DNA from: Balanoglossus misakiensis
Lineage: Eukaryota; Animalia; Hemichordata
Direction of reading: 5' to 3'
DNA: 64,000 nt
Assembly (NCBI GenBank): GCA_040954595.2
Contig: CM082597.2
Coordinates: forward strand, 2,478,449-2,542,448
The notes beneath the pieces are model-generated. The model was not told the origin of the DNA. It ran no database searches and was given only the letters and a program-made list of their open reading frames with translations. Positions 39,401 through 64,000 of this stretch are shown piece after piece (position 1 is the stretch's first letter; the number at the start of each line of letters is the position of its first letter). The translations under genes were made by a program, and so were the position numbers.

Positions 39401-39583
39401 AACCATTGCAAACAGCCTTGCCCGCAAATCTTCACACTGCGATAATGGACTGGAAACTGTGGACTGTAATCTAACCTCACCACTACTTGGGGTATAAGTA
39501 TAGGCCTAATCTATAGCAGATAGAAACATTGTTTGTTCTGAATAATGTAATGTTAATGGTCTTCATTTTTCTTGCAGGTAATA

Positions 39584-40825
39584 ATGAATGAGAGCTCAAC
39601 AGAGGACACCCTCCAATATCTACATCTACCCGGACAGGGCAATGAAACCACCGACGAATGGCGCATGCCAAGTCACTGGTACGTTCCCAAGTCCATCATT
39701 TATTCCATGTACAGTCTCTGCATGGTCCTGATAGTGACGGGGAACCTGATGGTCATCATCGCTGTGCTGCTGGAACCCAAGCTTCGCCGGCTGCCAACGA
39801 ATCTCCTGATAGTTTCCCTGGCGGTGTCGGATCTTTTAGTTGGTTCATACTACATACCATCAGTAATCATGTGGGATGAGGCTTTGGAGTTGATGCTGAA
39901 TCCTGTAATCTGTAAAATCGACGGTTTCATCCAACTCACCAGCACGGGGGCCAGTGTGTTCAGTCTCATCGCCATCGCTGCTGACCGGTTCCGAGCCATA
40001 GTGACCCCTCTCAAACCGAAGATAACACGTTGTCATGCATGTATCATGGCCGCCCTTGCCTGGATATGCGCGATGTGCTATGCGTCCTACATGCCAATTA
40101 CTTGGGGATACCAGCTGTACATCGAAAACTACGGTAACCTAACTTTTGTAACTCCCTACTGTTTCCTTCTGCCGTCGACCGTGCCATTCACACTGTTCCG
40201 GACAATGGATTTCGTCGTCCTGTTCCTGGTTCCACTTTTGGTCCTTATCAGCCTTTACGCGCCAATGGTGTACAAACTATGGTTTGACAAGCAGCCAGCA
40301 AGTACGACAGGCCACAAGAAGAAAAACGCAGTAAAGACGCTATCCATGGTGGTCATATTGTTCTTCACAATGTGGTTGCCACATTACACTCTCTATCTGT
40401 ACGTTCAATACGGCGACTTCATGAGCTCTAGAGCGAACCTACGAGCTGTGGCTTTGTTCGCTATTTGCCTGAACTTCTCCAACAGCTGGGTAAACCCTAT
40501 CATTTACGCCTGCTTCAACGACAGTTTCCGCAACGCTTACAAGAACACACTGCTCTGCAGGATTTGGAGGATGACCCGACGGGTGTACCCGACGTCTGAC
40601 CCTGAATCAGACCACGGAGGTGAAATACGAGCGACCAACCTACAACAACAGATATCATCCAGAAACACTCTCCTGACAACTGTACACACAACGTCTGCAC
40701 ATAGCATTATCTCAACCGTACCTACAGCTGTAGTTCTGGCACAACCTGCTAAAGCTTTCATAGCACAGAATCAGTATTTGCTTTCCCCTCATATGTTTAT
40801 CAGTCGAAAAGATAACTTAAAGTAA
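39584..40825 (+). CDS. Class A GPCR, neuropeptide/RFamide-receptor-like, paralog of 1043-2221, about 413 aa
   Basis: Same motifs as the paralog (GN, LAVSD, DRFRAIVTP, MWLP, NSWVNPIIY). About 78% identical across TM1-TM4 by my manual count. The real start is the ATG at 39584, after an acceptor ttttcttgcag (ending 39577); the ORF track's 39572 start is a TTG. Confidence 0.93.
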   Translation: MNESSTEDTLQYLHLPGQGNETTDEWRMPSHWYVPKSIIYSMYSLCMVLIVTGNLMVIIAVLLEPKLRRLPTNLLIVSLAVSDLLVGSYYIPSVIMWDEALELMLNPVICKIDGFIQLTSTGASVFSLIAIAADRFRAIVTPLKPKITRCHACIMAALAWICAMCYASYMPITWGYQLYIENYGNLTFVTPYCFLLPSTVPFTLFRTMDFVVLFLVPLLVLISLYAPMVYKLWFDKQPASTTGHKKKNAVKTLSMVVILFFTMWLPHYTLYLYVQYGDFMSSRANLRAVALFAICLNFSNSWVNPIIYACFNDSFRNAYKNTLLCRIWRMTRRVYPTSDPESDHGGEIRATNLQQQISSRNTLLTTVHTTSAHSIISTVPTAVVLAQPAKAFIAQNQYLLSPHMFISRKDNLK

Positions 40826-42072: not shown

Positions 42073-43104
42073 CTAGCTATTGTTGCCATTCCCTTTTATA
42101 TTGAAATATGAGGCTGATATAGCAACTATGCAAGAACTCAGGATGATAAAGCTGGCACCAAGGATGTCGTAGAGGTTCAGTATATAACCAAAGAACAAAT
42201 AGTCAGCTGCATAAGCGATGACAATCTGGATATTGACAAGCAGCACGACTGTCGTAGGAGGCTCTATCTGCAGGCTACGAAAGCGACACAGAAAGTTCAG
42301 ACAGAAGGAGACGATCAAGCCGGTTAGCAGTCCGAAGGCTGCGCCAGATAACTGCCAACGCGGCGTGCCTACGGTGAAAGTCAGGACGAGGCTGATCAGC
42401 GATCCGATTGAGCTCTCGTAGAAGTTAATGACCAAAACGTTGACGCCATCGCCGATTGCTGACCCAGTGACGTAGGTGATTGAAAATCCAAACCCGCAGA
42501 TGACACTCAGCAGGTAGCCAAGCCAAGCGTAGTCGTCAGCAGCCTCGTCTGCTTTGCTGGTTGCACTGCCGAATATAGCCTCTGGCTGAGCGGTGAACAG
42601 AATACCCGCCAGGCAAAGAATCGTGCTCACAATGTGGATTTTCGTGAAGGGCTCCTTAAGAAAGATCCTTGCCAAAATCGGGGTGATGATGGGCATTGTA
42701 CCACGATAGATGGATGTGACGTTTCCAATTGGGATGTACACAAGAGCGAGAATCTGACACATGTCTGCAAGCGTGTAAATGATAGCAATCATTACCAGCA
42801 ACAAACGCTCTCTGAATGTCTCGGCCAAAATGGCCTTGGGTCCAAACAAACACAGGATAAATGGAGTCACACAAATAAAACTTCCTCCATACATTAACAG
42901 CAGCAGTTGATACGGCGACAGGTGCAGGTTTTCCAAGAAAACAGTGAAGGTGTTATTAAGGGCAGAGAAAACTCCTGCCAAGAGGGCGAGACACACACCC
43001 TTAACGGATTGGAAAATGTGGCCCTTAGTTGTATCTGCACCATTTTCGTTGTCTTCGGATTTGCCGTTGATGAGAAGATCGAGTTCCGTACCATTTCTTG
43101 CCAT
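42073..43104 (-). CDS. SLC35G-like / EamA (DMT superfamily) transporter, about 343 aa, intronless
   Basis: About 10 hydrophobic segments in two EamA-like halves. Motifs GVCLALLAG, ALVYIPIGNVTSIY..PIITPILARIFLKEPF, AQPEAIFG, RSLQIEP...QIVIAYAADYLFFG...DILGASFII. The first ATG is at 43104 (MARNG). Confidence 0.88.
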   Translation of the reverse strand: MARNGTELDLLINGKSEDNENGADTTKGHIFQSVKGVCLALLAGVFSALNNTFTVFLENLHLSPYQLLLLMYGGSFICVTPFILCLFGPKAILAETFRERLLLVMIAIIYTLADMCQILALVYIPIGNVTSIYRGTMPIITPILARIFLKEPFTKIHIVSTILCLAGILFTAQPEAIFGSATSKADEAADDYAWLGYLLSVICGFGFSITYVTGSAIGDGVNVLVINFYESSIGSLISLVLTFTVGTPRWQLSGAAFGLLTGLIVSFCLNFLCRFRSLQIEPPTTVVLLVNIQIVIAYAADYLFFGYILNLYDILGASFIILSSCIVAISASYFNIKGNGNNS

Positions 43105-44267
43105 TTTGTGATTTCTTAGTACAACACACTGATGTCTTCTATAGCTAATACAAGTTTCCTGGGTCAATCTTCAAATTATGATGCGAGTATATGCCGATAA
43201 ACTTGATTGTCGGACGAAAACCATTACACTCCTTTCAGTTGCAGATATCTCCCTATAGGCTTAGTTTTCGGTTACTGATCCTAAGGCCAATTTGACTTTC
43301 TATCTGTCGTCTCCAAATTACTTTTTGCAGAATCCGTTTCAGCAGAAGACAATCACTATCACGCCGGCATATAATCTCAGACTGCTTGCGTTGAAGACAA
43401 ACCTGTTGTGCGCTGGTCAACAAAGCAACATTGATGTCAGGTACGTTGTTAATTATGCGAGTCTGCCGTCGATAAATGATTCTGAATACGTAACAGACAT
43501 ACAGTAAATTCCTGCATTAAAGCGCCATTTCATAACCATTTCATATTTTAGCGGCGCTAAACAAAGGCAGAAAAATCTGTGACGCTTATTCATTGATACT
43601 GGACCCAGTTGATTCATATGCAAATGACTTTGGGACGTTCCAATCAGTGTTCTCGTAAGGGCGTGTCCAGACGTGTCCGCAGTGAATGAATGGCTCGACG
43701 GTTTCAAATGCATTTGTAAAGTTTTAACATTTTCTATTCAAATACAGTCAGTTCAATGTATTATCTAATCAATATTCCAGAAATAAAAAGTTGTCAACGA
43801 AGTGAATACTACGAGCAGCATTACAGTATGCTTGCTGAACTATCAACAAAATCTACTGACGTATAATGGTTTAGTGCAAGTGCGCCTTTGTCATGCTCTC
43901 ACACATGTAAGGCCATTTTTACAGAAGTTCCTGGTACCCTCAACCAGGAGAGAAGGTCGAAGGTCCTATGTTCTCACTCTACGTTTATGCAAATCACAAT
44001 GACTTGACAATTCTACACAATAGTTCATCAAGCTACATGTACCAGCAAGTCTGCATCCACGGACATACAAATTATTTTGTATTGAAATTTATGAATAAAT
44101 TGTTTGTTTTAGATACAATGTTCACAATTCTTGCATATGCTGTTTCTATATTATTTTTGGATCTAATATTCCTGCATTTCACTTTACTTACGCGACAAGT
44201 ACCTCATTTGCTTATCTTAAAAGGTACTGATAGAAATGATTAACTTTTTATCTCAGATTTCCCTCTT

Positions 44268-44297: not shown

Positions 44298-44384
44298 GGT
44301 GGAAATGGATTGACCATAGTTTTTTTCATTAGTCTAGATCATCATGCTTATTCGGTACTATAGGCCACTGGCCTTAATGTACTA

Positions 44385-44588
44385 CTGGAAAACACTTTAT
44401 TTTCGCGAGCAATAAATTTTTGCGAAATTCGTGAGAGCCAAAATAGCGTGAAAATAAAAAGTCGTGTAATTTTTCTTGAAGATAATGCAGTGAATGAAAT
44501 AAGAGAACACGACAATTAATACACGCAAAACTGTGGTCTCTCTCGATATCGTGAAAATTTCAACTCGCGAAAATAAAGTGTTTTACAA
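44385..44588. mobile_element. MITE with TA target site (Tc1/mariner-type); same family as 52879-53086
   Basis: TIRs CTG(G)AAAACACTTTATTTTCGCGAG...CTCGCGAAAATAAAGTGTTTTACAA, flanked by TA. Colinear with the copy at 52879. Confidence 0.85.
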
Positions 44589-44853
44589 TATTTCCATATC
44601 GAAAAAAAGTTACAGTCACATTAGTCTAGTTGAAAAACAAAGTCTAGACTACAGGTTGTTTTTCATTTTCACCTTGAGTGTGAAAAGCACTCAGAGAGTT
44701 ACCTTTGTACTGTGTTGGTTGTTCCTATGGTCTTCCGTGTAGCTCCATCTATCTTCATTCTTTACGGGCGTGGTGCTTTTGACCTACCTGATTGATCCTC
44801 TTCTGAACTCCCATGGACAACTCAGTCACACGTTCAGCTTGTCATTCGCAATT

Positions 44854-45319: not shown

Positions 45320-48300
45320 TCAGAAACCCAGATCTGTCATATACTTAAGTCCTGTTAAAAAAGCAAAAGATAGTATTCAAAAAACAGAACAGTGGACTGT
45401 AATATGATCTTCATCATTTGCAGTAGATACCCACAGAAGAAAAATGCTGGAAATATAATGAAAAGTTACAGCTAATTGAGCTTTAATGATAACTTCAGAG
45501 ATCGAAACATTTTCAAAGTCACAACTTGAAAGGAAAAAGGACACACCTGCTACTGCACTGAGGAAACCAGAACTGTAAATCCCAGCCTCATTCTGCAGCC
45601 AGTTTGTACGAACATCGTCATAGTTGTCCTTTTTGTCAGGCCCACCGACCAACGCTCCGTACAACGGTTCAGGGTTTGGCGCTGTAAAATGCAGAGTGGC
45701 CCAGTTGCACGGCTCGGGTAGGCTAGGACAGGAGCTATATTTCCATTTTTTAATAAGACAGGGAGAGGGAGATAGAGAAAAGAGAGGAGGGGAGATATAG
45801 AGGGGGAGAGAGAGATGAGAGAGAGGTAATAGAGTGAGATCCAATATGATGAGTGACAACTTTTCTGGTGTAAAACTCCATACAGTTTAATACTTTCATC
45901 CCATAAAGTTCCCTTGTCAGAGATCCAACATTATCATAGGAAAAAATGGGTTTGAACTGAACCATGGTGGTGAAAGGGTTAAAATAATCAAACCATAAGG
46001 CCATTATACATTTATGGTTCTGCTTACCAAGTCTTGGATACTAACGATGCAGACGTTTGTTCTCATTTAATACTTTAGAATTAACCTTACCTGCCCCTGT
46101 GATGTACTCGCTGAGGGGGATCTTTGCCAAACCCGGACACGTAGCTTCTACCACCATCGCCGAGGATATAGTGAATCTGGCTGCGTGCCCACTCGGTGTA
46201 GATCTCTGTGTTGATTCCATATTTTGCACAAACAGTAGCTAAGAAAGCTACGTTTGCTAAAGAGGAGATAATATAGATGGAATTAATTTTCGTTGCATTG
46301 GAAACTAACAAGAATACATATTATAGATGGAATTAATTTTCGTTGCATTGGAAACTAACAAGAATACATATACAGTCGAACCTGTCTATACTTGCCAGTA
46401 AAGGGACTTTCCTAAAGAGACAGAGTGGCCTTTATAGACAGGTGGCCTTTATATACAGGTCAATTAATGCACATTAATTTTGCACAGGACGTGTAACATA
46501 GTGGCCACCTGTATAAAGTGGCCACTTTATACAGGTGGCCACTAACATAGTTTTGACTGTATTTCATCTCAGAAAATCAACTCTTGGTATGCACAGTCAT
46601 ATTGAATATTGTCTGCATGATTCATATCAATCTGAGAGGCTTACACTTCTTACAATACAAGAGGCTAATTAATGGGATAATGAAAACACACCTGTATGTT
46701 TTAGAGGCTGGAACTGGTTCCTCCAGGCGAGTCCTTTAGGTGTGTAATAGGTTAAATCCCCAGGGAACCAGACATTGAAGAAACTAAAGACGGGTTCCAG
46801 GTAGGATTGGTTGTTGGTTGCCAAATACATTGTTATCTGGTATAACAAAAAGAAATTACAGACTTAACATTTATTTGTTGAGTGGGGCAAAGCAGTTATA
46901 GATTATGTATTAAAATCTTGCCAATAAATATTTAATTACAAAGCAATTCAAATCCAGACCTAAGTACATCAACACAGACGGACACATAAACATAAATAAT
47001 GTTTTCATTGCTCAACTGAGCAAAGGATGCTGAAATGGACAGGTTTGTCTCATGAACCGACCAAGATCCGTGCAGCAAGGGTAGTTCTAATGCATTCTGC
47101 CTTTACCTGCATCCCTGATGTAATTGTCGACCAGCTGAACTGAGTGTTTGTACGGTCCATACCAAAAGCGTCGTAATGATCCATAGCATCATCCAGGTAA
47201 TTCTGCTCGCCTGTAGCACGGTACATACACACTGCAGCATTCGTCAGCTCATCATAAAAAGAGGAACTCCTAAATTGTTTAAAGGGTATAGACAGTAAAA
47301 GAAACTTAAGGATATATAATTTTTTAAAAATGATTCCAGAAAAGTCTGTTTCTGCAGATGTCTAAAATGTTTGAGCATCAGAGCTTTAACAGAAATATAA
47401 TAAAATCGACCATCTCTTTTGATAAGATACTGTGTTTCTGTAATATTTTCAAGTAAGAATATCTTCTCAATATTTTTCCGAATATGAGTGGTTACAAATT
47501 CCTGGACATTCCAGGAGACTAAGAAACCCTCGCCGCAACTTGAAAGGACAGTGCAGAAACTGAACACTCACGTATAATGACCCGTGTAGACACTATCGGA
47601 CCATTTTCCGCGGTACACATTGGCAAAGTCGTACAACTCCCTTGCATGAGACAACAACAGAGCAGCATATGCTGGATCTATAAACATTGTACAGGAGAGA
47701 AGCAGATGAAGATTAAATAGAGGAAAAATAAAACTGTGTTTGACTTGTAAAATACTGAAAATAAATCACAGAATGAAACATCAACAACCAAAACTCAATT
47801 GTGTGTTGGTGACTTTGCAGCGCCTTTTTAATCAAAGGATCGCTGGATTTCTCTATATAAGTTTATTAATATTTTTTTTCCAAAGTATTCACTGAAATAA
47901 AGCTGCAATCCTTTATCTAGGAAGAGAAGGGTACGCTTGAGCGATTTGAGAGAGTCCAGTTCTTGGTACACTTCTCAGAAAAAAAAAATTTATGTTGATA
48001 ACTTACCAGTTTCTAGGAACACCATGTACGCCAACGCTAAAGATGCTGCAGCATTTCCAGCAATATCACTACCTGGATGTTCAGTATCGAGTAACAGTGC
48101 TGTACGGTTCATAGTCATCTGCTCCGGACGGCCCCAGTAACCGTGGTCTAGATCGGGATTGCCCACCTTAACAAAACACAATTGCAACAAATATGAGGCT
48201 TTAGTGAAATTTTGATCTTAATTTTGACAGAGCAAAAGCACACTAAAAACTCCGCAAAACAAACTTGTACTTGGAGATTTAAAACTTTCTTGTGCCATCT

Positions 48301-49173
48301 GATAACTCTTAGTAAACCAAATTTTTGCAAGTTGACCTATGTGATGTACCACTTCAAATACTAAAATGTCTAAAAAGCTGGTAAAACTTCTTTCGATGAT
48401 TAGCCCATTTAAATTGCTACAGATTACTTCTTTTAACTTTCCTGGGTGAAACTTTTCAGGAAGACTGATACCCTTTGGTTATGCCTCTTCTTACTTACCA
48501 TGGCATAAAATTCATTGGGCTGGGTGTGGCACTTCATAACGTAATCAAGACCCCATCTCACACAGTCGTACATGTAGTCAAGTTCCCAGGCATCTTCATA
48601 GGCATCTCTGAATTCATACAATCCCCATACTAGCTTCCACAGGTTATTGGTGAGAGTCATCGAAAATTTAACATGGTCACCAGCTGTAAAGAAGGGAACA
48701 GTTTCAATCTGGAAATTGTCATTTATGGAAATCTACCATGTCATAACTATTTCTATGTTTAAAGGGCCACAATCGTCTTATGCGCATGTGCCAAACCAGA
48801 GACTCTGGTTACAAAAATGGTATACAGATAAGACAAGTGTGCTGTCCTAACAACAGACAAGATATGGCCAAAGTCTGTGTTGGAGATCAGGAAATAAGAC
48901 AGCAAATTGGATGAAAAGGGACAAAACTAGTCTAGACAATCGTTGTCCTTTAAAAGGTAACCAATCAGATCATATCATGCAGGATGCATGTTAACTAAAA
49001 AATATATAACTCACCATCATACCACCCTCCAGTGAGGTCTTCGCCATGTAGCCCCATATCGTACAGGGCAGAGTCACCTCTCCAAGGTATTCTGTTATCA
49101 GGTGGTAGAATACCAGAACGCTGTGTTTCATAGAACAATATCATTTTATGGATGACTTCGGGATAATTGTATT
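45320..49173 (-). CDS. Glycoside hydrolase family 9 (endo-1,4-beta-glucanase/cellulase) domain, 9 exons
   Basis: YNYPEVIHKMILFYETQRSG..IPWRGDSAL..DLTGGWYD|AGDHVKF; DHGYWGRPEQM; PGSDIAGNAAASLA; YDEL; YTPKGLAW; QIHYILG..SYVSGFG..HHRGSSC; LYGALVGGPD..QNE. Catalytic DAGD and the C-terminal Glu are present. Confidence 0.95.
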
Positions 49174-52100
49174 CTGCAAGAAAAACATCAGGATATCTTA
49201 ATAAACCTGACTATGAGATCCTACAGGGCAGGATCAGTCGTATTGAAACTTACTGAACCTGTTAGCAACTTTCTTATCATGAATAGTGTCCTGGAAACTA
49301 CCATTTCCATCTGCACTGTAACATTTAGTCTGTATGCATTTTTAACAGAGGGTACTGACTTCTCATAAACTTTTCCGATTTGCATGAAAATCATTCTGTA
49401 GATATATATTCTTTCATGTCAGTTGTGAGACAAGCGATATATAATGGCATATATTTATATTAATTTAACTTGTGTGGAAGAATAAATGAAAATTGTAGTA
49501 CTTACTCTCACAGAATGTACCATACGACCCAGGCCAACAGATACACTCACAGACACCAGCACCATTATCCACCAAATCTCCCTGCCTGCACCACTTTTCT
49601 TCACTCCCCTTACAAGCTAAAGAAGAGTTTTATTAATAAGTTATCTGAAACTCACATTTCTCTTAGAAAGGGAAGTACAAAAATAGCATTGATACTTACA
49701 GAATTGGCAGACGACATATTTCTCTTCTGAACAATTCGACGATATCCAATTGTACGAATTAGCACCACTGTCAAAGAAAAAATTAAACATGGCTGTTAAG
49801 ATATTTTCACCATAGGAAAACTACAGCATAAGGAGTGCAAGAAAAGTTCCGACTCTGCATTTTCCAAAGCATTTCAGATCCGCCAACTGAAAAAGTAGCA
49901 TGGGAACACCATATTCTCTCTCTGTTTGTTAACATTCATTGATAAACAATTAATACATATAAAAATCAGGAAAATGACGATATTCTAATTTTTGAGTAGA
50001 CCACTACCTTAAACCATGACTTACTGTCTTTCTCATATAAATTGGTACTATTTCACCTATAGACACTGAAATACAGAAAGTTCCCTTTTGATTGAAGATC
50101 ATGGCTGTTTCTCTATTTTGCATATTTTATTACCTTGCTAATGTACACACTTGACCTTGCTTAGGTTCTGCCGGTGTCCACTTTGTAATGTGAGGTGCCT
50201 TGGAATGACTGTCCCTCCACACGTACATGACAAGTTCGAGGTCAATGTAGAAGTCCTCCAAGGGGTGTTCAGAGGACTGTAGGAACATTGTGAAGTTTGC
50301 GTATTTTGCTTCGTCCAGCGCACTTGGTAGGTTGCCGTTGCGTTCCTCGCAGTAACTTTTCGCGTCATAGTAGTTCATCTTGTGATCCGCCATGATATAT
50401 TTTGGGGGCAGTGCGTTGAGAAATTCTGTGGAAAAATCGAACATCATGTCACAATAAGTACGCAGAACACAACAGAAAAAAATTTGTTATGAAAATTAGT
50501 GGTGCAAGAACCACTTCACTGATGAGACCATTCATTGTTTTCAGAGCTGAAAGCTTTTCCGTATATTTTTAATGAGTGTTTGATCTCTTAAGTTCTCAGA
50601 AAATTTATGTCTATGCATACAGGGCATGAGAATATAATGATCATAACAGTGCCACTTTGAGATGTAAATAGATAGGCACTTCAATAGAACTCACCATCAC
50701 AAAATTCCCCCTTCCAGTCTTCAGCACATTCACAAGAACAAGTGTCTCCAGTTATGGTAATGTTGCCATGGATACACCAGGAATCATCATGGCAGCCTAG
50801 AAACAATCAGATATGTCAGATTATAATAAGAGACTCAGGTCACCTTTACCTGGGGGTGCCAGTGCTTTTGATTTAATTTTCGGACACATGATCTGATACA
50901 TACATATCATATATGGCTTGGCTACATTATGTCTCTAAAGTGAGAAAGAAATAAGAATGAGAATTATACTCACTGAACATGCAGATTGAAGAGGCACCAC
51001 CGTAGCAGTGATGGTCACTCCATTTGTAATTGTTCTTTCGACTAAAGGAGAATAGGAGGAGCGAAATAGATTTTGTTTATAAAACAAATCACTGAAGATA
51101 CAAGTACAAAATTGGTTTACTCTACTTCAGCTTATGCATGCTATCGAAGCATCGCAATGATGCATATTTTGAATTTTCTGACAAAAATATATATAAGTGA
51201 AGCGTCCTTATATGTACACTTTAGAGGGATTGCTACAATAAAAAATCTTGACTTTTTACCTCAACACGGCACACTCTTTATCATTATCATTCGGTTCGCT
51301 CTCCGCCCAGTCGAAAAACGTAATGGTTTCCTGGAAAAGAGTCAGCCATTCGTTGCTGTCTGAATTATTCCGACGGAACCCGAGGAAGAACTTGTCATGC
51401 GCAGGTCTTGCCTTGATCACATCGATCAGAGCCAAACGCGTTGCCTCGTTTGGTATATGGACGGGTTCCCCGTTCATATCTAAACAAACCCGAGTGGCTT
51501 CGTTCCAACTGAGATGTGATGAGTGGATGATCTTGTATTTTGCGGGTGATACCGGCTCTAAGGGAAAGATGATAAAACTTTAATTAAGTTATTACAAAAT
51601 GTCAATGTTTACAGTAAGCATAATCTGACAAGAATTGTCATGTAATATTGACATCGTAATCTTGTAAATGGTGTATAAGTTCTCAAACATTTCAAACATC
51701 TTGTTGATATTAGTTTTCGAGAAATACATAAAAGGGTTCACCTTCTTCACGCTTGGAAAGGCAACTCACGCCATCTTTACACACGCATTCATTTGCACTG
51801 CAGATCTTCATGAAAGAAATGGAGAAAAATTATTAATATGGAAGTGAAAGTTAAATAAATTCTCAACAAACTGTTTGGTAAAAACCCTAGCCAGCGAAAT
51901 TGTAAATCTTTGAAACAAAATAGAGTTTTATGTGTCGACTGCTTCAAACATTTCAAGTTCTATCCCCAATGACTTTTTACCACTCACCTTATTTTTACCA
52001 CAATGAATCTCACTCTTCTCAGGAATGGCACCATCTTCCTTCATACATCCTTTGCTTCCAGAGGCAATTTCCACGTATTCGCACCACAGTTCGCAGTCAC

Positions 52101-55100
52101 CCTGCCAACATACATTCAACATTATATCTATACAAAGTATACTATGAATATGTTACCATTAATGGTGAAGATTTTAGAGGATAGGGAATATTTTTGAAGT
52201 ATTTTATTGTGGAAAAAAATACGTGAAATTTGGCAGCTCTAGAGGCTTTAATGCAACAACTGTATGTATCCACATACCGTCAATTCCGGCTTACGCCATG
52301 GACAGCTTCTCTCGCTGTAGTACTCGGGATTGTTCTCGAAAAGGGTTTTGCAAATGACATCAGCTTGTAGCGGGTACGTCAGCATAGTCTGCCAGTCACC
52401 AGGAATCGGTGCGTTATCAAAACATGTGATGTATGGTTTGCTGTGAGCAATCAGATTAGAGAATATTACCAACAGTTTAAAGGAAGGCCTGAAGACAATT
52501 ATCAGAGTTTCGGTGTACAATTGTTTATTTTTTATTGCGGTTTTGCTACGTCAAATTTGAATCAACGTGGTTCTGATACTGGTTCCTCGTACGTCAGCAG
52601 AAATTGGTTGTATTGTCATTCTGTGTTCAGTTGTTTATTTTCATTGCCGTTTTGCTTTGTCAAATTTGAATCAACGTGGTTGTCTGATACTGGTTCCTCC
52701 TACGTCAGCAGAAAATGGTTGTATTGTCATTCACGTGAACTGGGGAGTTTCAGCTTGGAGGCCGTGAACGGTTTTAAAGCCTCCAGGCAGAACCTCGCAG
52801 TTCACACAAATCATCTTGTCCGAACCACAGCACCAGTGGCACTTAATCCAAAGACATACAATGCATGATCATAACATACTGTAAAACACTTTATTTTCGC
52901 GAGCAATAAATTTTCGCTAAATACGCGAGAGCCAAAATAGCGTGAAAATAACAAGTCGGGTAAATTTTGTTTGAAGGAAACGATGCAGTGAATGAAATAA
53001 GAGAACGCGAAAATTAATACTCGCGACACAGTGGCCTCTCTCGATATCGCGAAAATTTTAACTCGCGAAAATAAAGTGTTTTACAGTAGTAGTTGTATGT
53101 TGAAACAAAGATTATGCAGAAAGGGTGGGGGCGGTATACTTAAGCATTACAAATAATTATTGCCTAGGCTACAAGCGATATCGTATGGTGATACATGTTT
53201 CAATGCACTTGACACACACCAGCAAATACCAAGAGGAGGAAATTGTCCTAGAACGCTTACTTCACGTAATCGAGAAGATCCTTCCTGTTGCATTCAGTGA
53301 AATACACCCTGTCAGCGTTTAACATTATCCCTTTCTTTGTTTTGGAAGCAGAGTCCAGGCCATGACAGTTGGGATCCAGTTGATCATAGTACATCCCAAG
53401 CCTACAAGAACAAAGCAATTGCTTGAGGGGTTTGTTTCGTATAATGTATTTTAACCAAGCGAAAAGACATCTACAGTATACCAGTGTTAAACACATTTAT
53501 GAATACTTTACTACAAGCTATTGGTAATACTATTAATTTGTTTTAGCAGTACTGATATCATAAACAGTCTTACCTAAGTTTTAAAATGTTAAACAGCTTA
53601 AATAGAAGTTGTCAGATCAGCCTCGATAGTTTATATAATTGTGACACTTGAAATAAAACTCGCGGTACAGTACGAACTGTTTCATGTTTTTATTCAACAC
53701 TAAATTGTTTGCTATTTATCACGCAAGAAGGTGGGCAGGGAAAACTTCAAGACATGGGCTTTGTGTTTTCTGTTTTTTTTGAGGCTCAAAAAATCTTAGC
53801 ATCAGTTTTCTCTCTTCTTCAAAGTATATGAACAAAACTATGATGATTGTACTCACATCAGACCAATTTCGTGTGCAATAGTACCTCTTGCCCCCTCAAA
53901 CGAGGAGAGTTTTACCACAGAGCATGGTTCAGTATTGCATGATTGGAAGTTGCTGAGTCCGGTGTCGTCTCTTGTGTCAACAACTGATGACCTAAATTTA
54001 ATTAATAAGCATGTGAATTAATTGTTAGTGTTCAGAGTGGCCAAGGGGTGAGGCATGCACACACACATTACACCAGGACGGCTGAAACCAACTGACCTGG
54101 TTTCATTCACTTCACCCATTTATATAGCAACACACAGGTGTCCGGCCTTTACCAGGTGTAACGGTATGACCATGCAAATACACTAGCATATGCAAATGCA
54201 TACAGTGTACAATGCAAATTTTCACAGGTGTTACACAAATACAGGTCACTTCAACAATGTTCATGCAGAAAAATCCAACAGATAATATAGTAGCATATTT
54301 TACACAAATTCGCAATGTGTCATATCAAATTAGAATTTGGTAATGTATTTTTAATTTAATATATTAAATAGTTTTACATGGTTATAACTTGCACATTCCC
54401 TGCCAGTAATTATACCTACACACACACAAATACACACACTGTATACATACCCACTTAGAAGAATAGCAGCATCGTAATGGTCTGGGTTTTGATCATTATC
54501 ATCCCAGAATTTCGGTTCCCATTTGGTTTTGTACGCCATGTAAATATCACTGATGTCAGCCCACCTCTGAACTTTGTATGCATCCTGTCAATCAATTGCA
54601 AAAACCCAGGTTTCACTGATTCAACTTTTACTGAGAAAATTCACTTTATTATAAGTTTGCAAAATTTATCATTCACAAAAATACTGCTAACAAGACGATT
54701 GAAGTAGTTATAACTGCTATTACAAGACATATCTTACCTCTAAAATCGGTTCCTCAAGGATTTGTACATTGATCACGTGCAGAATAACATGAATACCATA
54801 CTGATAGAGAGACTCGTGAAGGTAAATTGCTTGCACCTGGAACCAGCATCACAGAGAAGAAAATGTTTAGTAACTGGGGTGACTTTTGGTTGACAAATGT
54901 CACTTTCAAACAATTTCACCTTTCTGAAACTCAATATGATTAGTGAGAAAAAATTATATTCTTCCAGTGCAGTGTGAATGTGGTCTTTTAGACAAATGGT
55001 ACAATCAGGACTTTTAATCAAACGGAATACAATCATCGAACAATTAGAGTAGTTTTTCTCACATTGTTGATCAATGTTACAGCAAGCATAGCAGCATCAT

Positions 55101-58100
55101 CGCCATATTCCTTGTATACATCATAATTCACTGTCAACATCAATTCCACATGTATTTCACGTCTTCTGTCTGTTTCTGGCTTCCTTCGTTTGCGCAGGCG
55201 TCGCTGTCTTCTCGCTTTGGTGAACCTCTGGTTCATTCTAGCGTGAGTATGTCTGGTCGGCCTGAGAGCTTTTGGCGGTCCTGCTTCTTGGACATCTGAT
55301 AAGAAAGGAAGATTACCAAAAGTGCTGATTTAACGTTGGGGAAAAGGAATACCGGAGCATACAGAAAATAGTCTTTTATTTGAATTAAAACTGGCATGTC
55401 AGTTTCTTCTAATATGGATTGTTTGTCTATAAACTTCTCACAAAGTTAAAGCAAATCTGTCTTAAAATGATGGTACAGAAACCAACATGTGTCAGTACTT
55501 TGTTATGATTAGTTGAGACCTCTTTGCCATAATAGAACTTGCAACGACCAAACCTCACCTTCTACACGGAATATGTCGATCAAAAGTGGATGATCTTCTT
55601 CTGGATTCTCAACCAACATGTACGTCCCCCTAAATTCCCTCGAATTACTCTCCACTGGGAGTACATTATACCGCATATCATCAAAGAATAATGATCCTCC
55701 CTAGTAAGAGAGAGAGAGATAAAATCATAAAATTATGTTTAAGTTTTGTTCAGCACATTCAAATAGTGGACTGCCTTCGCTTATTTCCATATTTCATGTG
55801 CACTGTATAAGTAGACTTTTGTTATGTCCTTTCACCCAATTTTCTCTCTTTTCCCACTTGATGATTACATTATAAAATTATCACACATACCATGCTTCCA
55901 CAAGGACTCACTGCTGCTCGGCCATGAGATTCTTTGACCTTGGCTATGCCACATCTTCTGGTGACCGGTCCCATGAAGTGGCAGTTTTTGGGCTTGATAA
56001 ACTCAGAGGTGAAATTGTCCTCGCCCTTGAAATGCACTATTTTCGCACTTGGTACGATCAGCTCTGTAGGTAAAAAGGGTGATCATGATCTTCAATTTTC
56101 GCTATTTACGGAACTGGAAAAGGTTAAACCCTATTAACTTACATTTCATATTCTCTTCATATCACTTCCTGGGCAGTAATTCATGGGCATAAAAAACACA
56201 GTTTTGCTTGGAGAAACATACCTATATTCTCCGTCAGATTGAAGTAAAAATCACAGCCAAATGCCTTCATGAGACAATCCTTCTGGATACCGGAGCCATA
56301 GGTCTCGCACTCGGGATAAACGTAGTCATACTTGTTCGCTGTGCATAAAAAAAACACATCAAAATCGGAAAATAAAACGTGTGTTACCGTACATAACTTG
56401 AGCAATACTGTTTAATATTGACTTCCAAATGTCAATGTTTGTTTTCAATTGTCTGACATTTAACAATTTACACCTCTTTTCACTTTTCATTTGCTCTCCC
56501 AGATAATATCCTACCATAACACAGAAACGTCATCTGCCTACCTTCTTTGCTTCGATAAATACCATAATAATATTTCCCAATTTCTCCAGCATTGTCGCCA
56601 CTGTCCGCACTGCTGCCTCCTGTACCACTGGATTCGCTGTCCACGCTGTCACCAACTGAAGGATCTGATTCTTCTGTGACACTCTGTTCCAGAAAGAAAA
56701 ACAGTAAAGGGACATTCCCTGTAAATTTTGGCTTTATTTCCAATATTTTTTTCTTTGTAACAAGAAGCTGCAGTGTTCAATTGTTAAATAAATATTTTTT
56801 GTGCAGACTTCATACTCACACGTATTGATCTCTTCTTTGTAGTAGCCACTGAAATAAAGGCGATAAATAAATTAAGTTGATTTGAATCAGAAAATATGAC
56901 CTTTCAGAATACAGCTGTTGCAAACTTTTTTCGTAATAAACTTTACACTGATAATGAATATACTTCAATTAACAAATAATAAAAGAATCATATATACTTC
57001 AATATGATCATGCCTACCATCGCAAAACGTTCCTGTCCAACCAGTGTTGCATGAGCATTCACATCCAATTGCGTGTTGTGTTACAACTCCGTTAACACAC
57101 CAACTAGTTTGACTTACACATTCTGTGATAAATGTTCAAAAGAAAACGATGTTTCAATCTAAAACATGTAACAATATTTTATTCAAAATGACGTGTGTAC
57201 TCGTACGTATATATCAGGCAACATTTCAGGAACACTCGTCTCTAGTCTCCTATATATCTGCATTGTAATCATTGATTACCTTGGAGAGAAATACACAGAA
57301 TGGCGTATGTTTATTTTATTAAAAATACAATTACAGTTTTCTTCTTGTGTTTAGCACACTGCACAAATATAGTCTTACCAAATTCACACAGACTCAGGCT
57401 ATTTGCAAATCTACATGGTCTTGGTTGCCATTGGTATTCACGATCAGTCCTGTAGAAGATATAAATGACACTGTGAAAGGCTAAATATAAATGTTGAGTA
57501 TTTAATGTTTCCTCGAACAGCAAAGAATAGAGACAATTTATCTGGAACATCATTTGGTACAACGGACTATAATATGCATTAGTATATACACATATCAAAG
57601 GCTATTCTATAACTACGATATACACCAAAGTTGATAAACAAATCCTTCTTACCTGACTGCTGCACAAGTATCATTAATCTCAACATCCCACAGCCAATTG
57701 AAATATTCTTGAGGTCCATAATCATTGACCCACACCATATCTTCCTTTTGCAATCCAATGTATATCCTTGCGTTAGACGGGGTTTGGGTCTGAAGGAAGC
57801 TTTCGATAGCCGCCTGTGTGCCTTTGTTTGTTGAGGGCGCCAGTCTGCCATTCAGAGCCAAACACTCTCCTGGAGCATCTGAACCTTTGACTATGTTTGG
57901 ATTGAGCCAGTACATGATGTCGCTGCGAACTGAGATCAAATAAAAAGCCATGTGTCACAACAGTTAAAAGGCTGTGACAGGCCTTATGTTCAAAAAGAAT
58001 GCAAAACCTGTCTTTCTTGAAGAATAAACAGCATAAACATAGACACATTTACTCTTGCCTGCTATTCCCTGTTGGACAATATCACCTTTTTCATTAAACC

Positions 58101-61100
58101 CTGGAAACACAAATTATCACGTATGAGACTTAGCAGCAAACAATGTTCACTCCCAACTCTGGAAAGTTGACAAACTGAGCTAATGTATATCTGACAGATT
58201 AAACGGCAACATTATAACTAAATCAAACAGGGTTTACCTTCACAGAACTCTCCTGTCCATCCAGTGTTACATGTGCAAACACACCCTTCAGTCGGATCTG
58301 TCTCGATTACTCCGTTAACACACCATGTAGCAGACGGACTGCAATCTATATATGAAAATTAATATCGTAATTTTATTCTTAAATGATTTAAAAATAATTA
58401 ACATTTTAAGACACAAGTATATATATCGGAAGAACAATTTTCCAGCTGTATGTTGCATTTCCAAAGGACTTTGAAAGAAAAAGTATCAAACTGTTTTATG
58501 AGCCTAGTGCGGCAAAGTGGCAATACTCACCAAACTCACACAGATGTTTTCTGCCAGTTGTGCCACAGTTTATCATCGACCACTCCCACTCAGCACCGGC
58601 CAAGCTAAACAGAGTTAGGATAATTCAAATATTAGTTTCCCAAATGCTTGGTACATGCATTGTGACAATATTGGCGAGAAATGAGATACCGCAATTCGCG
58701 TTACTGCGAATATTCTTTTCAAAGGAACATCACATGTTCAATTGTTTTAACTTTATTGACAACACTAGGTTTCTTTCCTGTACACGACCACAATCTACTT
58801 TCTGTTGAGATTCATATAGCATTTATTTCATACCTTATGTAGGCGCATTCTTTCCCGATGTTTGTCGAATGACCGATGTTCGAATGCCAGTTTGTGTATC
58901 CACTTTGTTGCGTATCATTACCATACATCCAGACATTATTCACCTTGTGAATACCAAACATCACGTCTGTCGCTGACGTCGTCCCAAGGTGAGAGATAAC
59001 ATTCTGTTCCGCCTGCTGACTCAGTATTCGGGCTAGTCGTCCACCATTTTCGCTGCATGCAGCTACGGAATCGGTGTAGTCGATGGCGTCGGGTGACAGG
59101 CGATAGCGCACGGTGGGTTCAGGTGCAGGCTCTGTTGGTGAGGAACACATGGCATTAAATCAAGCAAATGAAGCCAGCAATACATGGCACCTTTCATTAT
59201 CATTACATCAAGTCCATTCTGTGGAGTTTCAGAAAACATGAATTAACAGGTGGTGTTAAGCATGCAAGCAATTAATTCACTGCTTTGCAGAATACAAAAC
59301 TTCATTAGAATACATACCTAGACAAAACTGTCCCTGCCAGCCAGTGTGACATACACAAGAACATGTACCAAGTTCGCTGTCAATGACTACGTCACCATTT
59401 GTACACCAGGAAGCGCCAGCAATACAATCTATTAACAAATCATTCCAAATTTTACAATTCAAAGATTTAAAAGTGAACATTAAGTTTTTGGGCATACCCA
59501 CCCATGAAAACGATTATCTGACATTACAAAGTATTTTTATACCAATTAAAATCAGCGAATGGCCTTGTTTGAGAACGTAAAATGTTCTGTAACAGAACTG
59601 TACAAAACCTTTACTCACCAAATTCACAAACATGTGCATTTCCCCAGTATTTGGCACAGTCCTCTGTCACCCACATGTAATTATCTGTTACTCTGCAGAA
59701 AAAAAACATCATTGTAAAAAAATCAATCTTTTGGCAATTAAGTGCATGTCCACCACTAGTGCGTGAATGTTTTGCACAAAGTTTAGGGTTTTTATCTTCT
59801 CAAACATTCGCAATCCAATGGGTAATGAGAGATTACCTGATGAAAAAGTGGGACAAGGCCAATAGGATACTGGTAATACACATAAGCAGGTAATTAGACA
59901 GTGTAACAATCAAAGTCTTCCTCATAATATGATTTAGTTTTGCATTTTCATTTATTACTATTGTTTGCTGTAATTTGTCTTCTTGCATCTCTTGGTTCCT
60001 TTCAATTCCTTGGCCAACATCAAACAGTAAAACTTACTCTAATGCTGAGCAGTCATATAGAGCAAGAGGTTCACCATCTGTCCAATTAGTGTACTGAGTT
60101 GGGATGTTGTTCTGGTAATATACCCAAGCTCCATCTACCCTAATGATACCGATGATGACGTCTCCCGAAGCCGGATTGGCGCCCACTCCTTCAAGGTAGG
60201 CCTGGGCACGCGCTTGGGCGTTGGCACTGTCCACGTTCAGAAGTCTTCCTCCGTACATTTCGCAGTTTTCCTTGGCCTCATTCCAGGCGAAGATCGCCTG
60301 TGGCATCCAGAGAGCCTTGGCAGTTATTGGAACTGGAAGTGAACATTATTGAAAAGTTAAGTTGAAAAGTCTGGTATTGAAAAGTTAAGTTGAAAAGTCT
60401 GGTATTGAAAAGTTAAGTTGAAAAGTCTGGTATTGAAAAGTTAAGTTGAAAAGTCTGGTATTGAAAAGTTAAGTTGAAAAGTCTGGTGAACATTATTGAA
60501 AGTTCGGTGAACATTATTGAAAAGTTAAGTTAACATTATTGAAAAGTTCAGTAAACATTATTGAAAAGTACAGACATGTTAGTTCACATTCAGGGATATA
60601 AAAAAGAGGTCTATGTATCTTAAAGAGACATAAGCTGTAACTTTTGGCTGTAATTCCAGTATTTTTGTTCTGTGTACCAAATGAAATTTCTTGTTCTACT
60701 CCAAACAATATGCTAAAAACCTTCTACAATTCCTGAACAGAAAACCATAAATACACCTACCATCACAAAACTCGCCTGTCCACGCATAGCTACAGTCACA
60801 TCTGCATCCTGTGCTCAGCATCTGCACAGTACCATGTGCGCACCAAGAAGTAATCGTTGTGCAATCTGTATTGTGATGAGAATCATAGAAGTATATGTTC
60901 GTAACATGTACATGCCAAGTTCATCAACTCTGAACAGCCAATACGGTGAATTATACACTGGTTGACAATGTACAAAGTGGCAAAACACCCCCACATATCC
61001 ATTCATGATACTTACCAAGTTCGCAAACACTCAATCTGTTTGCCCAAGAACAAGGTACAGCTTGCCAACCATACTCGCGGTCACTTCTGTTAAAGAAAAT

Positions 61101-64000
61101 GTTGACACAGTGTTCTTGAAAATTTGTGCAACAATTTTTTTCACGTTTTTTCTGGCCCATGTGAAGTTCTCGAAAATTTATCACTCGCGAAAATTTCCCT
61201 ATTAACAGTACTACCCAATAAAAATTGTATTACCTTAGAGTGCCACATTCGTCAGTTTCAGCTACAGCGAATTCCCACTTGAAGAAATCCTGGTCACCAT
61301 CTTGGTTCACCCAGACGTCGTTCACCCTTTTCAAATCAAAGAAGAATTTCGTGTAGGCAGTGGTCTTCGTGTCAAGAAACTCGCCGATCATCTTATTGGT
61401 TCCTGGGTTTGGCGAGACGGCCAATCGACCGCCCCTGGCAAGACACCCATCGGCAGCGTCTGTCCCCGAGACTGGTGAGGGGTTCAACCAATATCGGACG
61501 TCGTTTCGAACTGGTAATGAGAAGAATCATTGGCAGAAATTTGAGTTAAACGCTCTAATTTTGAATTGTAGCAATGTCAACTTTACCTTCAACGGCACAA
61601 AGCAAACATTTACGTTCCCTAAATATCTTCTCATATGTATTTAACCATTTTCTTTTATACTGACTATTCAACTTTGTACAGGGAATCACTCACCTTCACA
61701 GAATTCTCCTGTCCATCCTTGCGAGCATGCGCATGCACAGCCATTGTCAATGTCCGCAACAACCTGGCCATTAATGCACCACAAGTCTGACGAGCAATCT
61801 GCGAAATGAAAAGTGAAACATTTGAGAAATTTTCATCGAGACGTGAAGTGGTGGTGAGCAACAAGAAGGTTCAACATATGTCATGAACAAAGTCAACAAA
61901 ATCACACATTCATTGTAGAGTGTCTCCTCATGATTTCATTATATTAACGGCAGGAATTCAAACTCACCAAATTCACAGATGTATTTTCGACTGTTTGCAG
62001 TGCAGTCTATCATGTACCATTCGACGACACCATCTAACACACTGAAAAATAAAATAATTCATCTGTCAGTTTGAGCTTGGTGTACTAATTAACACAACCA
62101 TTGAGTATCATTATTTGTTTTCATGATTGTTTCGGTCCTCTCGATTAAGTGCATGTGCTCATTTTAACAGCAGATGTTGTATTTATGCCAATTACCTGAC
62201 GTAGGTACACTCTTTTCCTTCAGGGTTGTTGGCAGCATTCTTGTTCCACAAAGTGAAACCTCCCTGTTGGTTGACATCATCTGCCATCCAGGCGCCATAG
62301 CTTTTGTAGAGACCAACCAAAATTTCACTTTCTGCGGTGGTGTTGATGAATGCCATGAGATTGTCAAACATTTCCGGAGACTGCATCCGTGCCAAGTCAC
62401 CACCGAAGTATTCGCAGGTGTCCCACGCAGTGATGTAGTCGGCTGGTGTTGATGAGAGTCGATAACGAACTGTTGCTGGCGTGTCAGGTTCTGGAAAAAG
62501 AATTTGATGGTTTGATAATAAGTAGAATAACTCCAATGACCTCGCAATAGAACGGAGATTATATTTATGCTTCAGTCACGCATAAAACTCATCGGAGAAA
62601 ATGTTTCGTACAAGTGTCATGTACTCACGTAGACAAAATGGTCCTTTCCAGCCTACTGCACAGGTACATGAGCAATACCCATTCTCCAGATCTATGGTGA
62701 CTTGTCCACCATTTCTACACCAAGGAGAACCATTCAAGCAATCTGTGTAAAATGTCACCAAAACATTTCAGACATTGCCTCAATTAAACACCAATTAATA
62801 TAATATTTAAAAGTTACACAATGCTAACCAAAGGGCAAAGGGAAACAGGCTACAATTTCTCTGTCTACTAATGCAATATATAAACTGAATATAGATACTT
62901 GCCAAATTCACAAATACTAAGCCTTCCGAGAGCTGCAGTGCATAAAAGAGGTTGGAAACCATAATCTTTGTCCTTCCTGTAATGTACAAAATAAAACAGA
63001 TCAGAATAGACATTGAGAAATGACAAGTGTGATACAAGATGAGTTTTTGATAATAAATACCAATATTTCTGTGAGAATACTTCTTTATCTATATTGTATA
63101 TACAAGATAATTTATACACACACACACAAACATACAGACAGACATATATTTTTACCTGAGAACAGCACAGTCGTCGATAGCATCCACACTAAAAGCCCAA
63201 TCAAAGTAGTCTTGTTGGCCATCACTGTTAACCCACAAATCATTTTCCTTTCTCAAGTCGAAATAAATACTATCATCTGGAACAGTCTGCGTTGAGATAA
63301 ATGCACCAATACCCTGCTGTGTACCAAAATTTGGCACAACCGCAAGCCTACCACCCATAGCAACGCATTCATCATTGGCTGTTAGCCCTGACACTGGTAG
63401 TAAGTTCACCCAATACATAAGATCAGTGTAAACTGCAATGTATAATATAAGAACACAAATATTAACAAGGATTCTCCTGGTGGTGATATCTTGCTAGTTA
63501 ATAGCGTACTTCATCGCATGATTTGACGTCAATTAGCAAAGACTACAATAGGTTTTATTCTGAAATTATTGTAAATGTTTATAGCCCTTAGGAATGGTAC
63601 TATTTTTGCATTCTGTTGTGTACTTCTAAAAGATATATAAAGAAATAAACATCTTGTTGTACCTTCACAGAATTCTCCACTCCAACCACTGTTGCAGCTA
63701 CAGAAACAACCTTCTTCAGCATGTGCAGTTATCACGCCATTGTTACACCATGTGCCACCCGAACAATCTAATCATGGAAAAGACATAAACCAAGCCTGTT
63801 AAATATCAGTGACACTGTTTAAATTGTTTTCATTTATTTAAGCTGATAACACCAGATGAACATCATAACAATATTTATTTTCTTAACCATCGTCAAGTAG
63901 GAATATTTTTTTAAACAGTTACAGGAAAGTAAAGTAGGTTTTAAACTTACCAAATTCACAGACATGCTTTCGACTGGCAATAGTACAGTCCGTCATGTAC
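45320..64000 (-). CDS. Giant multi-exon mosaic protein, 5' end outside the window: (CTL-EGF)x>=7, linker, ADAMTS-like prodomain, inactive M12B domain, disintegrin-like domain, (CTL-EGF)x2, GH9 endoglucanase
   Basis: 48 manually spliced exons, all phase-compatible, 6,889 nt in the window, no internal stop. In transcript order: 63951-64000, 63663-63767, 63156-63432, 62903-62976, 62629-62742, 62196-62490, 61968-62041, 61694-61798, 61234-61510, 61016-61086, 60761-60865, 60038-60332, 59619-59692, 59318-59428, 58834-59131, 58531-58604, 58238-58345, 57653-57929, 57379-57449, 57018-57122, 56820-56848, 56542-56683, 56222-56338, 55891-56063, 55559-55700, 55063-55295, 54738-54836, 54451-54584, 53857-53991, 53261-53401, 52278-52440, 51988-52101, 51742-51805, 51260-51557, 50974-51041, 50695-50796, 50134-50425, 49700-49767, 49506-49616, 49015-49173, 48499-48683, 48007-48166, 47572-47677, 47107-47269, 46692-46836, 46091-46256, 45547-45734, 45320-45351 (ends GLKYMTDLGF*). 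Confidence 0.82.
45887..45982. mobile_element. Short TTAA-flanked (piggyBac-like) non-autonomous element in an intron
   Basis: TTAA-TACTTTCATCCC...CCATGGTGGTGAAAGGG-TTAA, imperfect inverted ends with TTAA on both sides. Confidence 0.45.
46271..46370. repeat. 50-bp near-perfect tandem duplication
   Basis: TATAGATGGAATTAATTTTCGTTGCATTGGAAACTAACAAGAATACATA occurs twice in succession. Confidence 0.95.
46373..46559. mobile_element. pogo-like MITE (CAGT...ACTG ends, TA target site)
   Basis: TA-CAGTCGAACCTG...GTTTTGACTG-TA, with internal GTGGCCTTTATAGACAGG-type subrepeats. Confidence 0.8.
49506..51557 (-). CDS. Two C-type lectin + EGF modules directly preceding GH9
   Basis: CTL1: SWNEATRVC..FLGF..WAESEPNDNDKECAVL..KWSDHHC..SICMF, then EGF. 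CTL2: NYYDAKSYC..YIDL..WTPAEPKQGQVC..WISSNC..VVCQF, then EGF CECICWPGSYGTFCE. Confidence 0.9.
51742..56338 (-). CDS. ADAMTS/reprolysin (M12B)-type prodomain, metalloprotease-like domain and disintegrin-like domain
   Basis: Prodomain: KAFGCDFYFNLTENIELI, NCHFMGPV..RAAVSPCGSMGG. Polybasic RRQRRLRKRR. Catalytic-type: IHVELMLTVNYDV, DQNPDHYDAAILLS, TIAHEIG, Met-turn GIM. Disintegrin-like: ADVICKTLF..C..CELWC..CGKNKIC..EC. Confidence 0.88.
52521..52732. repeat. About 110-bp tandem duplication (2 copies) in an intron
   Basis: ttgtttatttt..GTCAAATTTGAATCAACGTGGTT..CTGATACTGGTTCCTC.TACGTCAGCAGAAA.TGGTTGTATTGTCATTC occurs twice. Confidence 0.9.
52879..53086. mobile_element. MITE with TA target site, intact copy
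   Basis: Perfect 25-bp TIRs CTGTAAAACACTTTATTTTCGCGAG / CTCGCGAAAATAAAGTGTTTTACAG flanked by TA. Confidence 0.9.
57018..64000 (-). CDS. Tandem array of C-type lectin + EGF modules (6 complete CTL, 1 partial CTL, 7 EGF)
   Basis: Repeating three-exon unit: a 277-298 nt CTL exon (C..GGRLA..(F/Y/V)xGL..W..W..C), a 71-74 nt exon (W..C..(I/V)CEF) and a 105-114 nt EGF exon (C..WC.NG..C.C.C..GW.G.FC). Confidence 0.92.
60347..60568. repeat. 28-bp minisatellite (5 exact copies, 60347-60486) plus degenerate copies
   Basis: Unit TATTGAAAAGTTAAGTTGAAAAGTCTGG read directly. Confidence 0.95.
61130..61210. mobile_element. Partial MITE related to the CTCGCGAAAAT...ACAG-TA family
   Basis: Ends GAAAATTTATCACTCGCGAAAATTTCCCTATTAACAG-TA, resembling the right end of the 52879 MITE. 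Confidence 0.45.

Follow-up and report, generated by a model that had tools for sequence, protein, structure and literature searches.

Introduction

Does a metalloprotease domain in which two of the three zinc-binding histidines have been replaced still do chemistry, or has it been kept for another purpose? The question is raised by a gene of the acorn worm Balanoglossus misakiensis that lies in the window, by which we mean the whole 64,000-nucleotide stretch of DNA analysed here (contig CM082597.2, 2,478,449 to 2,542,448; positions below are counted from its first letter). The initial annotation had taken the domain for a metzincin retained as a structural or binding pseudo-protease, and had added, as a long shot, a metal site rewired around Tyr.

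Two zinc ligands are replaced in two adjacent exons

On the minus strand, exon 29 (53991-53857, bounded by AG and GT, phase 2) is spliced to exon 30 (53401-53261), which joins AHEIGLM to LGMYYD and gives the motif HEIGLMLGMYYD; at the junction itself, exon 29 ends in ...GGT CTG AT and exon 30 begins with G CTT GGG ATG TAC TAT GAT, yielding AHEIGLMLGMYYD. The codons for His1 (CAC, 53873-71) and for the general-base Glu (GAA, 53870-68) are kept, the His2 position is occupied by Leu (CTG, 53861-59), and exon 30 contributes Tyr at the His3 position (TAT, 53388-86) followed by the retained motif Asp (53385-83) and the Met of the Met-turn GIM (53325-23), all on the minus strand. Since the Leu codon lies entirely within exon 29, off the junction, it is unaffected by the choice of acceptor. 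The motif state is a direct reading of the DNA: where an active M12B protease has HExxH with two histidines, the window and its ortholog P0001 (introduced below) have HEIGL, and the third-ligand His of xxGxxH is Tyr in the window, P0001 and the paralog P0002. His3 is present in all 76 non-family rows of our alignment. The proposed changes of His2 to Leu and of His3 to Tyr are thus borne out by the splice, by the codons and by P0001, which reads through the same junction, and the translation of exons 29 and 30 together with the alignment confirms that Glu, Gly, Asp and the Met-turn are kept. Most ADAMTS cysteines are also present, in agreement with the earlier remark that several had survived.

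A different exon supplying the missing histidines was sought within the window, and none restores the motif. A six-frame scan returned just two HxxGxxH matches, both on the plus strand and distant (35353 and 60207), and among the alternative donor and acceptor pairs examined down to 52200 six place a His at a single one of these positions; no pair restores both, and no pair yields metzincin-like sequence. The initial annotation had also seen no cysteine switch near the end of the prodomain. This absence stands, the last 96 aa of the window prodomain containing no Cys; its value as evidence of inactivity does not, and we rejected it as a sign of a dead enzyme, because among the 56 other homologs whose prodomain is of sufficient length only 29 have a CG pair in its last ~100 residues (20 of the 76 rows, with short N-termini, were omitted).

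Orthologs and paralogs in Ptychodera flava

A search with exon 29 matched one protein, P. flava XP_070551727.1 (P0001), which is collinear with window exons 1-33, shows 69% identity across 1548 aligned residues and has exactly the motif of the window; the state of the motif in the ortholog, which the initial annotation had singled out for scrutiny, therefore matches that of the window. A HMMER search with the catalytic and disintegrin-like part of P0001 gave 79 matches, the top three all from P. flava: P0001 itself, P0002 (XP_070555870.1, 41% identical) and P0003 (XP_070551725.1, 32%). Among 17 other matches that were looked up, the named ones are ADAMTS-like or M12B proteins. The word-indexed searches, each of which found one P. 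flava protein and one of which missed P0002, are of low sensitivity and do not delimit the range of the family beyond P. flava, and a search of 50% clusters can hide close family members; a metagenome pattern scan with exon 29 produced 500 pattern matches, of which none was confirmed. The P. flava family set comprises XP_070551727.1, XP_070551007.1, XP_070555869-72.1 and XP_070551725.1, that is, pieces of the ortholog and paralogs. These relatives are uncharacterised automatic models, and the ortholog is split and without a signal peptide.

At the four catalytic positions, 75 of the 79 aligned rows read H-E-H-H and one reads H-Q-H-H. P0001 reads H-E-L-Y, P0002 reads H-T-L-Y (motif HTLGLMLGMYYD, with Leu and Tyr kept and Glu changed to Thr) and P0003 reads R-Q-H-N (motif RQLGHVVGMDND, with a different set of ligands lost and Gln at the Glu position), such that each of the four positions is missing in at least one family member; the Met-turn GIM is found in the window, P0001, P0002 and P0003 alike. 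Outside the family, an ADAMTS-like Logan protein of 1158 aa (P0024) reads HQIGH, with Glu changed to Gln, and is itself a candidate pseudo-protease. In a quick tree of the window and 78 of the 79 hits (after a length filter), the window, P0001, P0002 and P0003 fall into a single group (SH-aLRT 97) with long branches, that of P0003 among them. The Leu/Tyr pair likely predates a duplication in the family, as it is common to the grouped window, P0001 and P0002 sequences and survives the loss of Glu in P0002. The accession of P0003 adjoins that of P0001 and their contigs are equally long, so the two are probably tandem neighbours; within positions 1-45000 of the window, no P0003-like copy was seen and tblastn gave no match to a second copy of the gene.

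Gene model and domain architecture

The hand-built model spans 45320-64000 on the minus strand and comprises 48 exons with an open frame of 2295 aa that ends with TGA at 45322-45320; it is collinear with P0001 and with a further P. flava protein, P0101. The protein is at least 2295 aa long, its 5' end and signal peptide region lying beyond the window. Exons were placed by splice-site scores and reading frame, and the model is a predicted one. Its 47 introns (83-820 nt) comprise 46 of the GT-AG type and a single GC-AG intron, which follows exon 4 (62903-62743, minus strand) and whose GC donor (GCAAGT) is required for the frame. The Pfam scan covered 37 window exons. The prodomain and M12B exons match no Pfam family singly, and their labels come from the scan of P0001 and from alignment.

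From its N-terminal side, the modelled protein begins with an array (exons 1-20, 57018-64000, minus strand, as are all features of the gene) of six complete C-type lectin domains preceded by the end of another. An EGF-like domain comes behind each of them, so that seven EGF-like domains alternate with the lectins, and the array is 66% identical to P0001. A linker with a basic convertase-type KKR site and a Ser/Gly/Asp-rich stretch (exons 21-22, 56542-56848) leads to an ADAMTS/reprolysin-type prodomain with a polybasic end (exons 23-26, 55159-56338), assigned by homology to P0001 and alignment; the Pep_M12B_propep profile reaches E 2.8e-4 on P0001, below the Pfam cut-off. The reprolysin-type M12B domain itself, the putative pseudo-protease (exons 26-31, 52407-55158), is assigned from the Reprolysin profile on P0001 (E 2.2e-7), a match to ADAMTS5 (E 1.2e-8) and the predicted model. 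It is followed by an ADAMTS-type disintegrin-like/cysteine-rich domain and a dibasic KR (exons 31-33, 51742-52406), by two C-type lectin and EGF units recognised by Pfam and homolog alignment (exons 34-39, 49506-51557), and by a GH9 (cellulase-family) domain (exons 40-48, 45320-49173), with seven of the eight scanned GH9 exons matching Glyco_hydro_9. The protein ends with GH9 and a stop, and no membrane anchor is seen in the modelled part. The core of an ADAMTS, namely a prodomain, an M12B domain and an ADAMTS-type disintegrin-like domain, is therefore present; no family match to a thrombospondin repeat or spacer, and none to Disintegrin, the true disintegrin domain, was found in the 37 window exons, P0001 or P0002.

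Of the two lectins behind the protease module, the first contains EPN, a motif of Ca-dependent mannose/glucose binding, in the window and in P0002. A basic site precedes the prodomain in all three long proteins (KKR in the window, RKKR in P0001, KKKR in P0002), and after the disintegrin-like domain P0001 and P0002 have RRKR whereas the window has only KR, not RxxR.

Several features of the surrounding DNA were recorded along the way. A MITE-like element of ~210 nt with terminal inverted repeats of 27-37 nt occurs in two copies that are 91% identical (52877-53088 and 44383-44590), the former inside the intron after exon 30. Introns also contain tandem duplications at 52529-52732 and 46260-46359 (units of about 110 nt and 50 nt) and, by eye, a short-unit array at about 60340-60520. 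Elsewhere in the window, two similar intronless ORFs (1043-2242, minus strand, 399 aa; 39557-40825, plus strand, 422 aa) look by eye like rhodopsin-class peptide GPCRs, and an intronless ORF of 365 aa (42073-43170, minus strand) has, also by eye, the look of a multi-pass transporter, presumably of the EamA/SLC35 type.

One gene or two

Whether the pseudo-protease and the GH9 domain belong to the same gene depends on the exon 33-34 join, the least certain point of the hand-built model. P0002, represented by four RefSeq isoforms, runs in one chain from a hydrophobic N-terminus and an optional EGF through the prodomain, pseudo-M12B and disintegrin-like domains and two lectin/EGF units to GH9. As this paralog has the same core order in a single chain, the domain order of the window gene is independently supported. 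P0101 aligns with window exons 37-48 at 74% identity and begins with a Met that falls within the second lectin, and P0001 diverges behind the disintegrin-like domain into a tail with its own stop. Window exons 34-36 are covered by neither, and the contigs of the two proteins are equally long. The division into P0001 and P0101 is probably a split annotation, with a real short form as the less likely alternative. From the model we consider it quite probable that the window contains one gene that includes GH9. If there were instead two adjacent genes, or a short isoform as the main product, the lectin-EGF-pseudoprotease part would end after exon 33 and a separate lectin-GH9 part would follow it, the fusion existing only in the paralog. 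RefSeq indeed keeps P0001 and P0101 separate, with a stop in the former, and the donor of exon 33 reaches only a modest score of 2.8. However, exons 33 and 34 are just 184 nt apart with matching phase and a strong acceptor, P0101 has no hydrophobic N-terminus and begins within a lectin domain, and P0002 unites the same domains in four isoforms, which together render the division rather unlikely.

The GH9 domain

In GH9 enzymes, the Asp-x-x-Asp pair and the Glu have catalytic roles. Aligned to solved enzymes, the GH9 domains of the window and P0101 retain DAGD, HGYWGRPE, HHRGSSCP and the catalytic Glu; the best solved matches of the orthologous GH9 are 3wc3, 8ihw, 4zg8 and 1ks8 (E 2e-130 to 4e-117), and the P0101 model in the Atlas reaches a TM of 0.94 against GH9 clusters. 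Directly after the Glu there is a one-residue deletion (45548-45733, minus strand; NEAGIY against NEVAxDY in the solved enzymes) that is common to the window, P0101 and P0002, and cleft positions are changed relative to the solved animal cellulases in all three copies. P0002 has DAGN instead of DAGD, and its HxxWGRPE lacks the His; since this second Asp and this His are lost, its GH9 is possibly dead, and P0002 may be dead in both enzyme domains. For the window, we incline slightly towards an active GH9 domain.

Alternatively, the whole protein could have no enzymatic activity and work in adhesion, mucus structure or immune recognition, its GH9 domain being a glucan-binding module. Such a role would suit the long lectin/EGF arrays, the altered GH9 cleft of all three copies and the apparent degeneration of P0002 in both enzyme domains. 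It is nonetheless decidedly unlikely, given that the window and P0101 keep the whole set from DAGD to Glu and that the P0101 model falls so close to GH9 clusters.

A conserved cleft in a predicted ADAMTS-type fold

Exon 29, which carries the predicted cleft strands and the active-site helix, is 96% identical to P0001. Between the window and P0001, a run of 51 fully identical residues extends over these strands and the helix (the next longest run is 23), in a protease domain that is 83% identical as a whole, compared with 66% for the lectin array. In a permutation test, 51 of 100000 replicates reach a run of this length, a figure that assumes sites to be independent, and some clustering is natural for residues of the core. 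Between paralogs, identity in the motif is restricted to the nine residues GLMLGMYYD, which suggests a structural core with a paralog-specific surface in this pseudo-protease family.

An AlphaFold model of the catalytic and disintegrin-like pair of P0001, built from the 79-row alignment, has a pLDDT of 82.6 and a pTM of 0.81, and its best structural matches are ADAMTS4, 1 and 5. VIA-align superposes it on ADAMTS5 (6yjm) with Z 24.8 and rmsd 2.4 Å over 205 residues, on ADAMTS1 (2v4b) with Z 24.7 and rmsd 4.8 Å over 267, and on ADAM22 with Z 21.8 and rmsd 2.6 Å over 200. The superposition that the initial annotation had called for thus predicts that the domain of the ortholog keeps the reprolysin fold. 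The loops near the cleft lack a pair of cysteines and acidic residues that ADAMTS proteins have there. No His or Cys near the motif that might serve as an alternative ligand is both common to the family and missing from active homologs.

The predicted fold, the Met-turn, most of the cysteines and substitutions common to an ortholog and a paralog all support the pseudo-protease reading, and we regard it as very probable that this protease-type domain is not a protease. By its sequence, the ADAMTS-type fold is likely zinc-free and non-catalytic.

Residual chemistry would equally explain why His1 and Glu are kept in the invariant stretch of the window and P0001. It is conceivable that the acorn-worm cleft has been re-tooled and not merely plugged, with a His-Glu-Tyr-Asp pocket that binds or acts on a glycan or glycopeptide as an accessory module of the cellulase, an idea that we consider unlikely. 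Lower still we place a chemically active site in the stricter sense, in which His1, Glu, Tyr and Asp of the window and P0001 would bind a metal in an unusual way or make up a catalytic pocket that needs none. The Met-turn is intact and both orthologs keep His1 and Glu within their only long invariant run (51 aa), as such a site would require. On the other side, just one His remains and Leu is unable to ligate, the sister paralog P0002 has Leu and Tyr without the Glu, the family offers no additional His or Cys near the motif that active homologs lack, and the loop cysteines and acidic residues that lie near the cleft of ADAMTS have been lost as well. The identical Leu/Tyr pair is moreover listed for the pseudo-proteases ADAM2, 18 and 32, and for this reason, and with P0002 keeping the pair without Glu, the suggestion of Tyr as a rewired ligand is weakened and an active site of this kind appears very improbable. 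An assembly error or decaying pseudogene is scarcely credible, for although two motif codons are off consensus, the same residues occur in the ortholog and a paralog from another assembly, the motif of the former being identical, and the frame is open across 48 exons; for the motif itself these relatives refute an assembly error.

Proposed mode of action

Returning to the pseudo-protease, we favour, on balance, an acorn-worm polyprotein that unites lectins, a pseudo-protease and a cellulase, is probably secreted and contains a dead ADAMTS-type module. In this proposal, Leu and Tyr would fill the empty zinc site while the helix, the Gly turn and the Met-turn still fold, as in ADAM2, 18 and 32, and the prodomain would be retained as a folding chaperone. 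Furin-type convertases might cut the basic sites on either side of the prodomain, with a further cut behind the disintegrin-like domain in the P. flava copies, and so release co-secreted pieces. The dead domain may then serve for binding or as a scaffold, its old cleft, the most conserved stretch between orthologs, being the part probably used. The lectin units would bind sugars and GH9 would cut beta-glucan in the food or mucus of a deposit feeder, presumably in the gut or in mucus.

If the gene model holds, this would be an independent case of a Leu/Tyr plug of the metzincin zinc site that informs the origins of pseudoenzymes. It would also be a new animal cellulase architecture, in which C-type lectins replace the cellulose-binding modules of other GH9 proteins, and a lead on how deposit-feeding hemichordates handle plant and algal polysaccharides. 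Dead M12B domains are known from membrane ADAMs. The present family is apparently undescribed: we found no paper on a reprolysin-lectin-GH9 protein, and supplements of genome papers might list such genes.

Comparison with known systems

The catalytic and disintegrin-like unit shares with ADAMTS1, 4 and 5 its fold, prodomain, polybasic maturation site and Met-turn, and the positions Glu7, Asp105 and Asp215, which we take to have a structural calcium role, are conserved. Compared with these enzymes, the window domain has lost His2 and His3, and the WSxCS motif reads FTECN; in place of thrombospondin repeats and a spacer, the window protein has lectin/EGF arrays and GH9. With the animal GH9 endoglucanases (3wc3, 8ihw, 4zg8 and 1ks8) it has DAGD and the catalytic Glu in common, and it differs from them in the one-residue deletion after the Glu and in the changed cleft residues. 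The nearest Atlas GH9 clusters are bare GH9 or combine it with CBM2, CBM3, CBM10, CBM49, fn3 or dockerin, and Lectin_C or Reprolysin with GH9 does not occur among the Atlas matches listed. A paper on sea-cucumber digestion (PMC11470021) names P. flava as a comparison genome.

The closest likeness in the zinc motif is to the membrane ADAMs. Table 2 of a review of pseudometallopeptidases (PMC11266112) gives ADAM2 (QLLSLSMGITYD), ADAM18 (QLLGLNVGLTYD) and ADAM32 (QMLALSLGISYD) as pseudopeptidases that keep the Met-turn and in which Leu takes the place of His2 and Tyr that of His3; the pseudopeptidases of that table include none of the ADAMTS type. According to the same review, pseudo-ADAMs typically retain the Met-turn, and ADAM22 uses the surface of its dead domain, not the pseudo-active site, to bind LGI1 (PMC11266112). 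A degenerate zinc motif with a kept Met-turn is thus shared by the window domain and ADAM2, 18 and 32, as well as by ADAM11, 22 and 23 and unc-71. However, ADAM2, 18 and 32 belong to the membrane ADAMs, contain a true disintegrin domain and lack His1 and Glu. The window domain retains both residues and is of the ADAMTS type; the modelled part of its protein shows no membrane anchor and connects it to lectins and a glycoside hydrolase. The resemblance probably arose by convergence. By analogy, a dead M12B domain is nothing new in kind, and Leu with Tyr seems to be a plug that recurs, not a novel metal site. As judged from its predicted domain content, the window protein is pseudo-ADAM-like in its working, yet it stands outside both the ADAM and the ADAMTS families.
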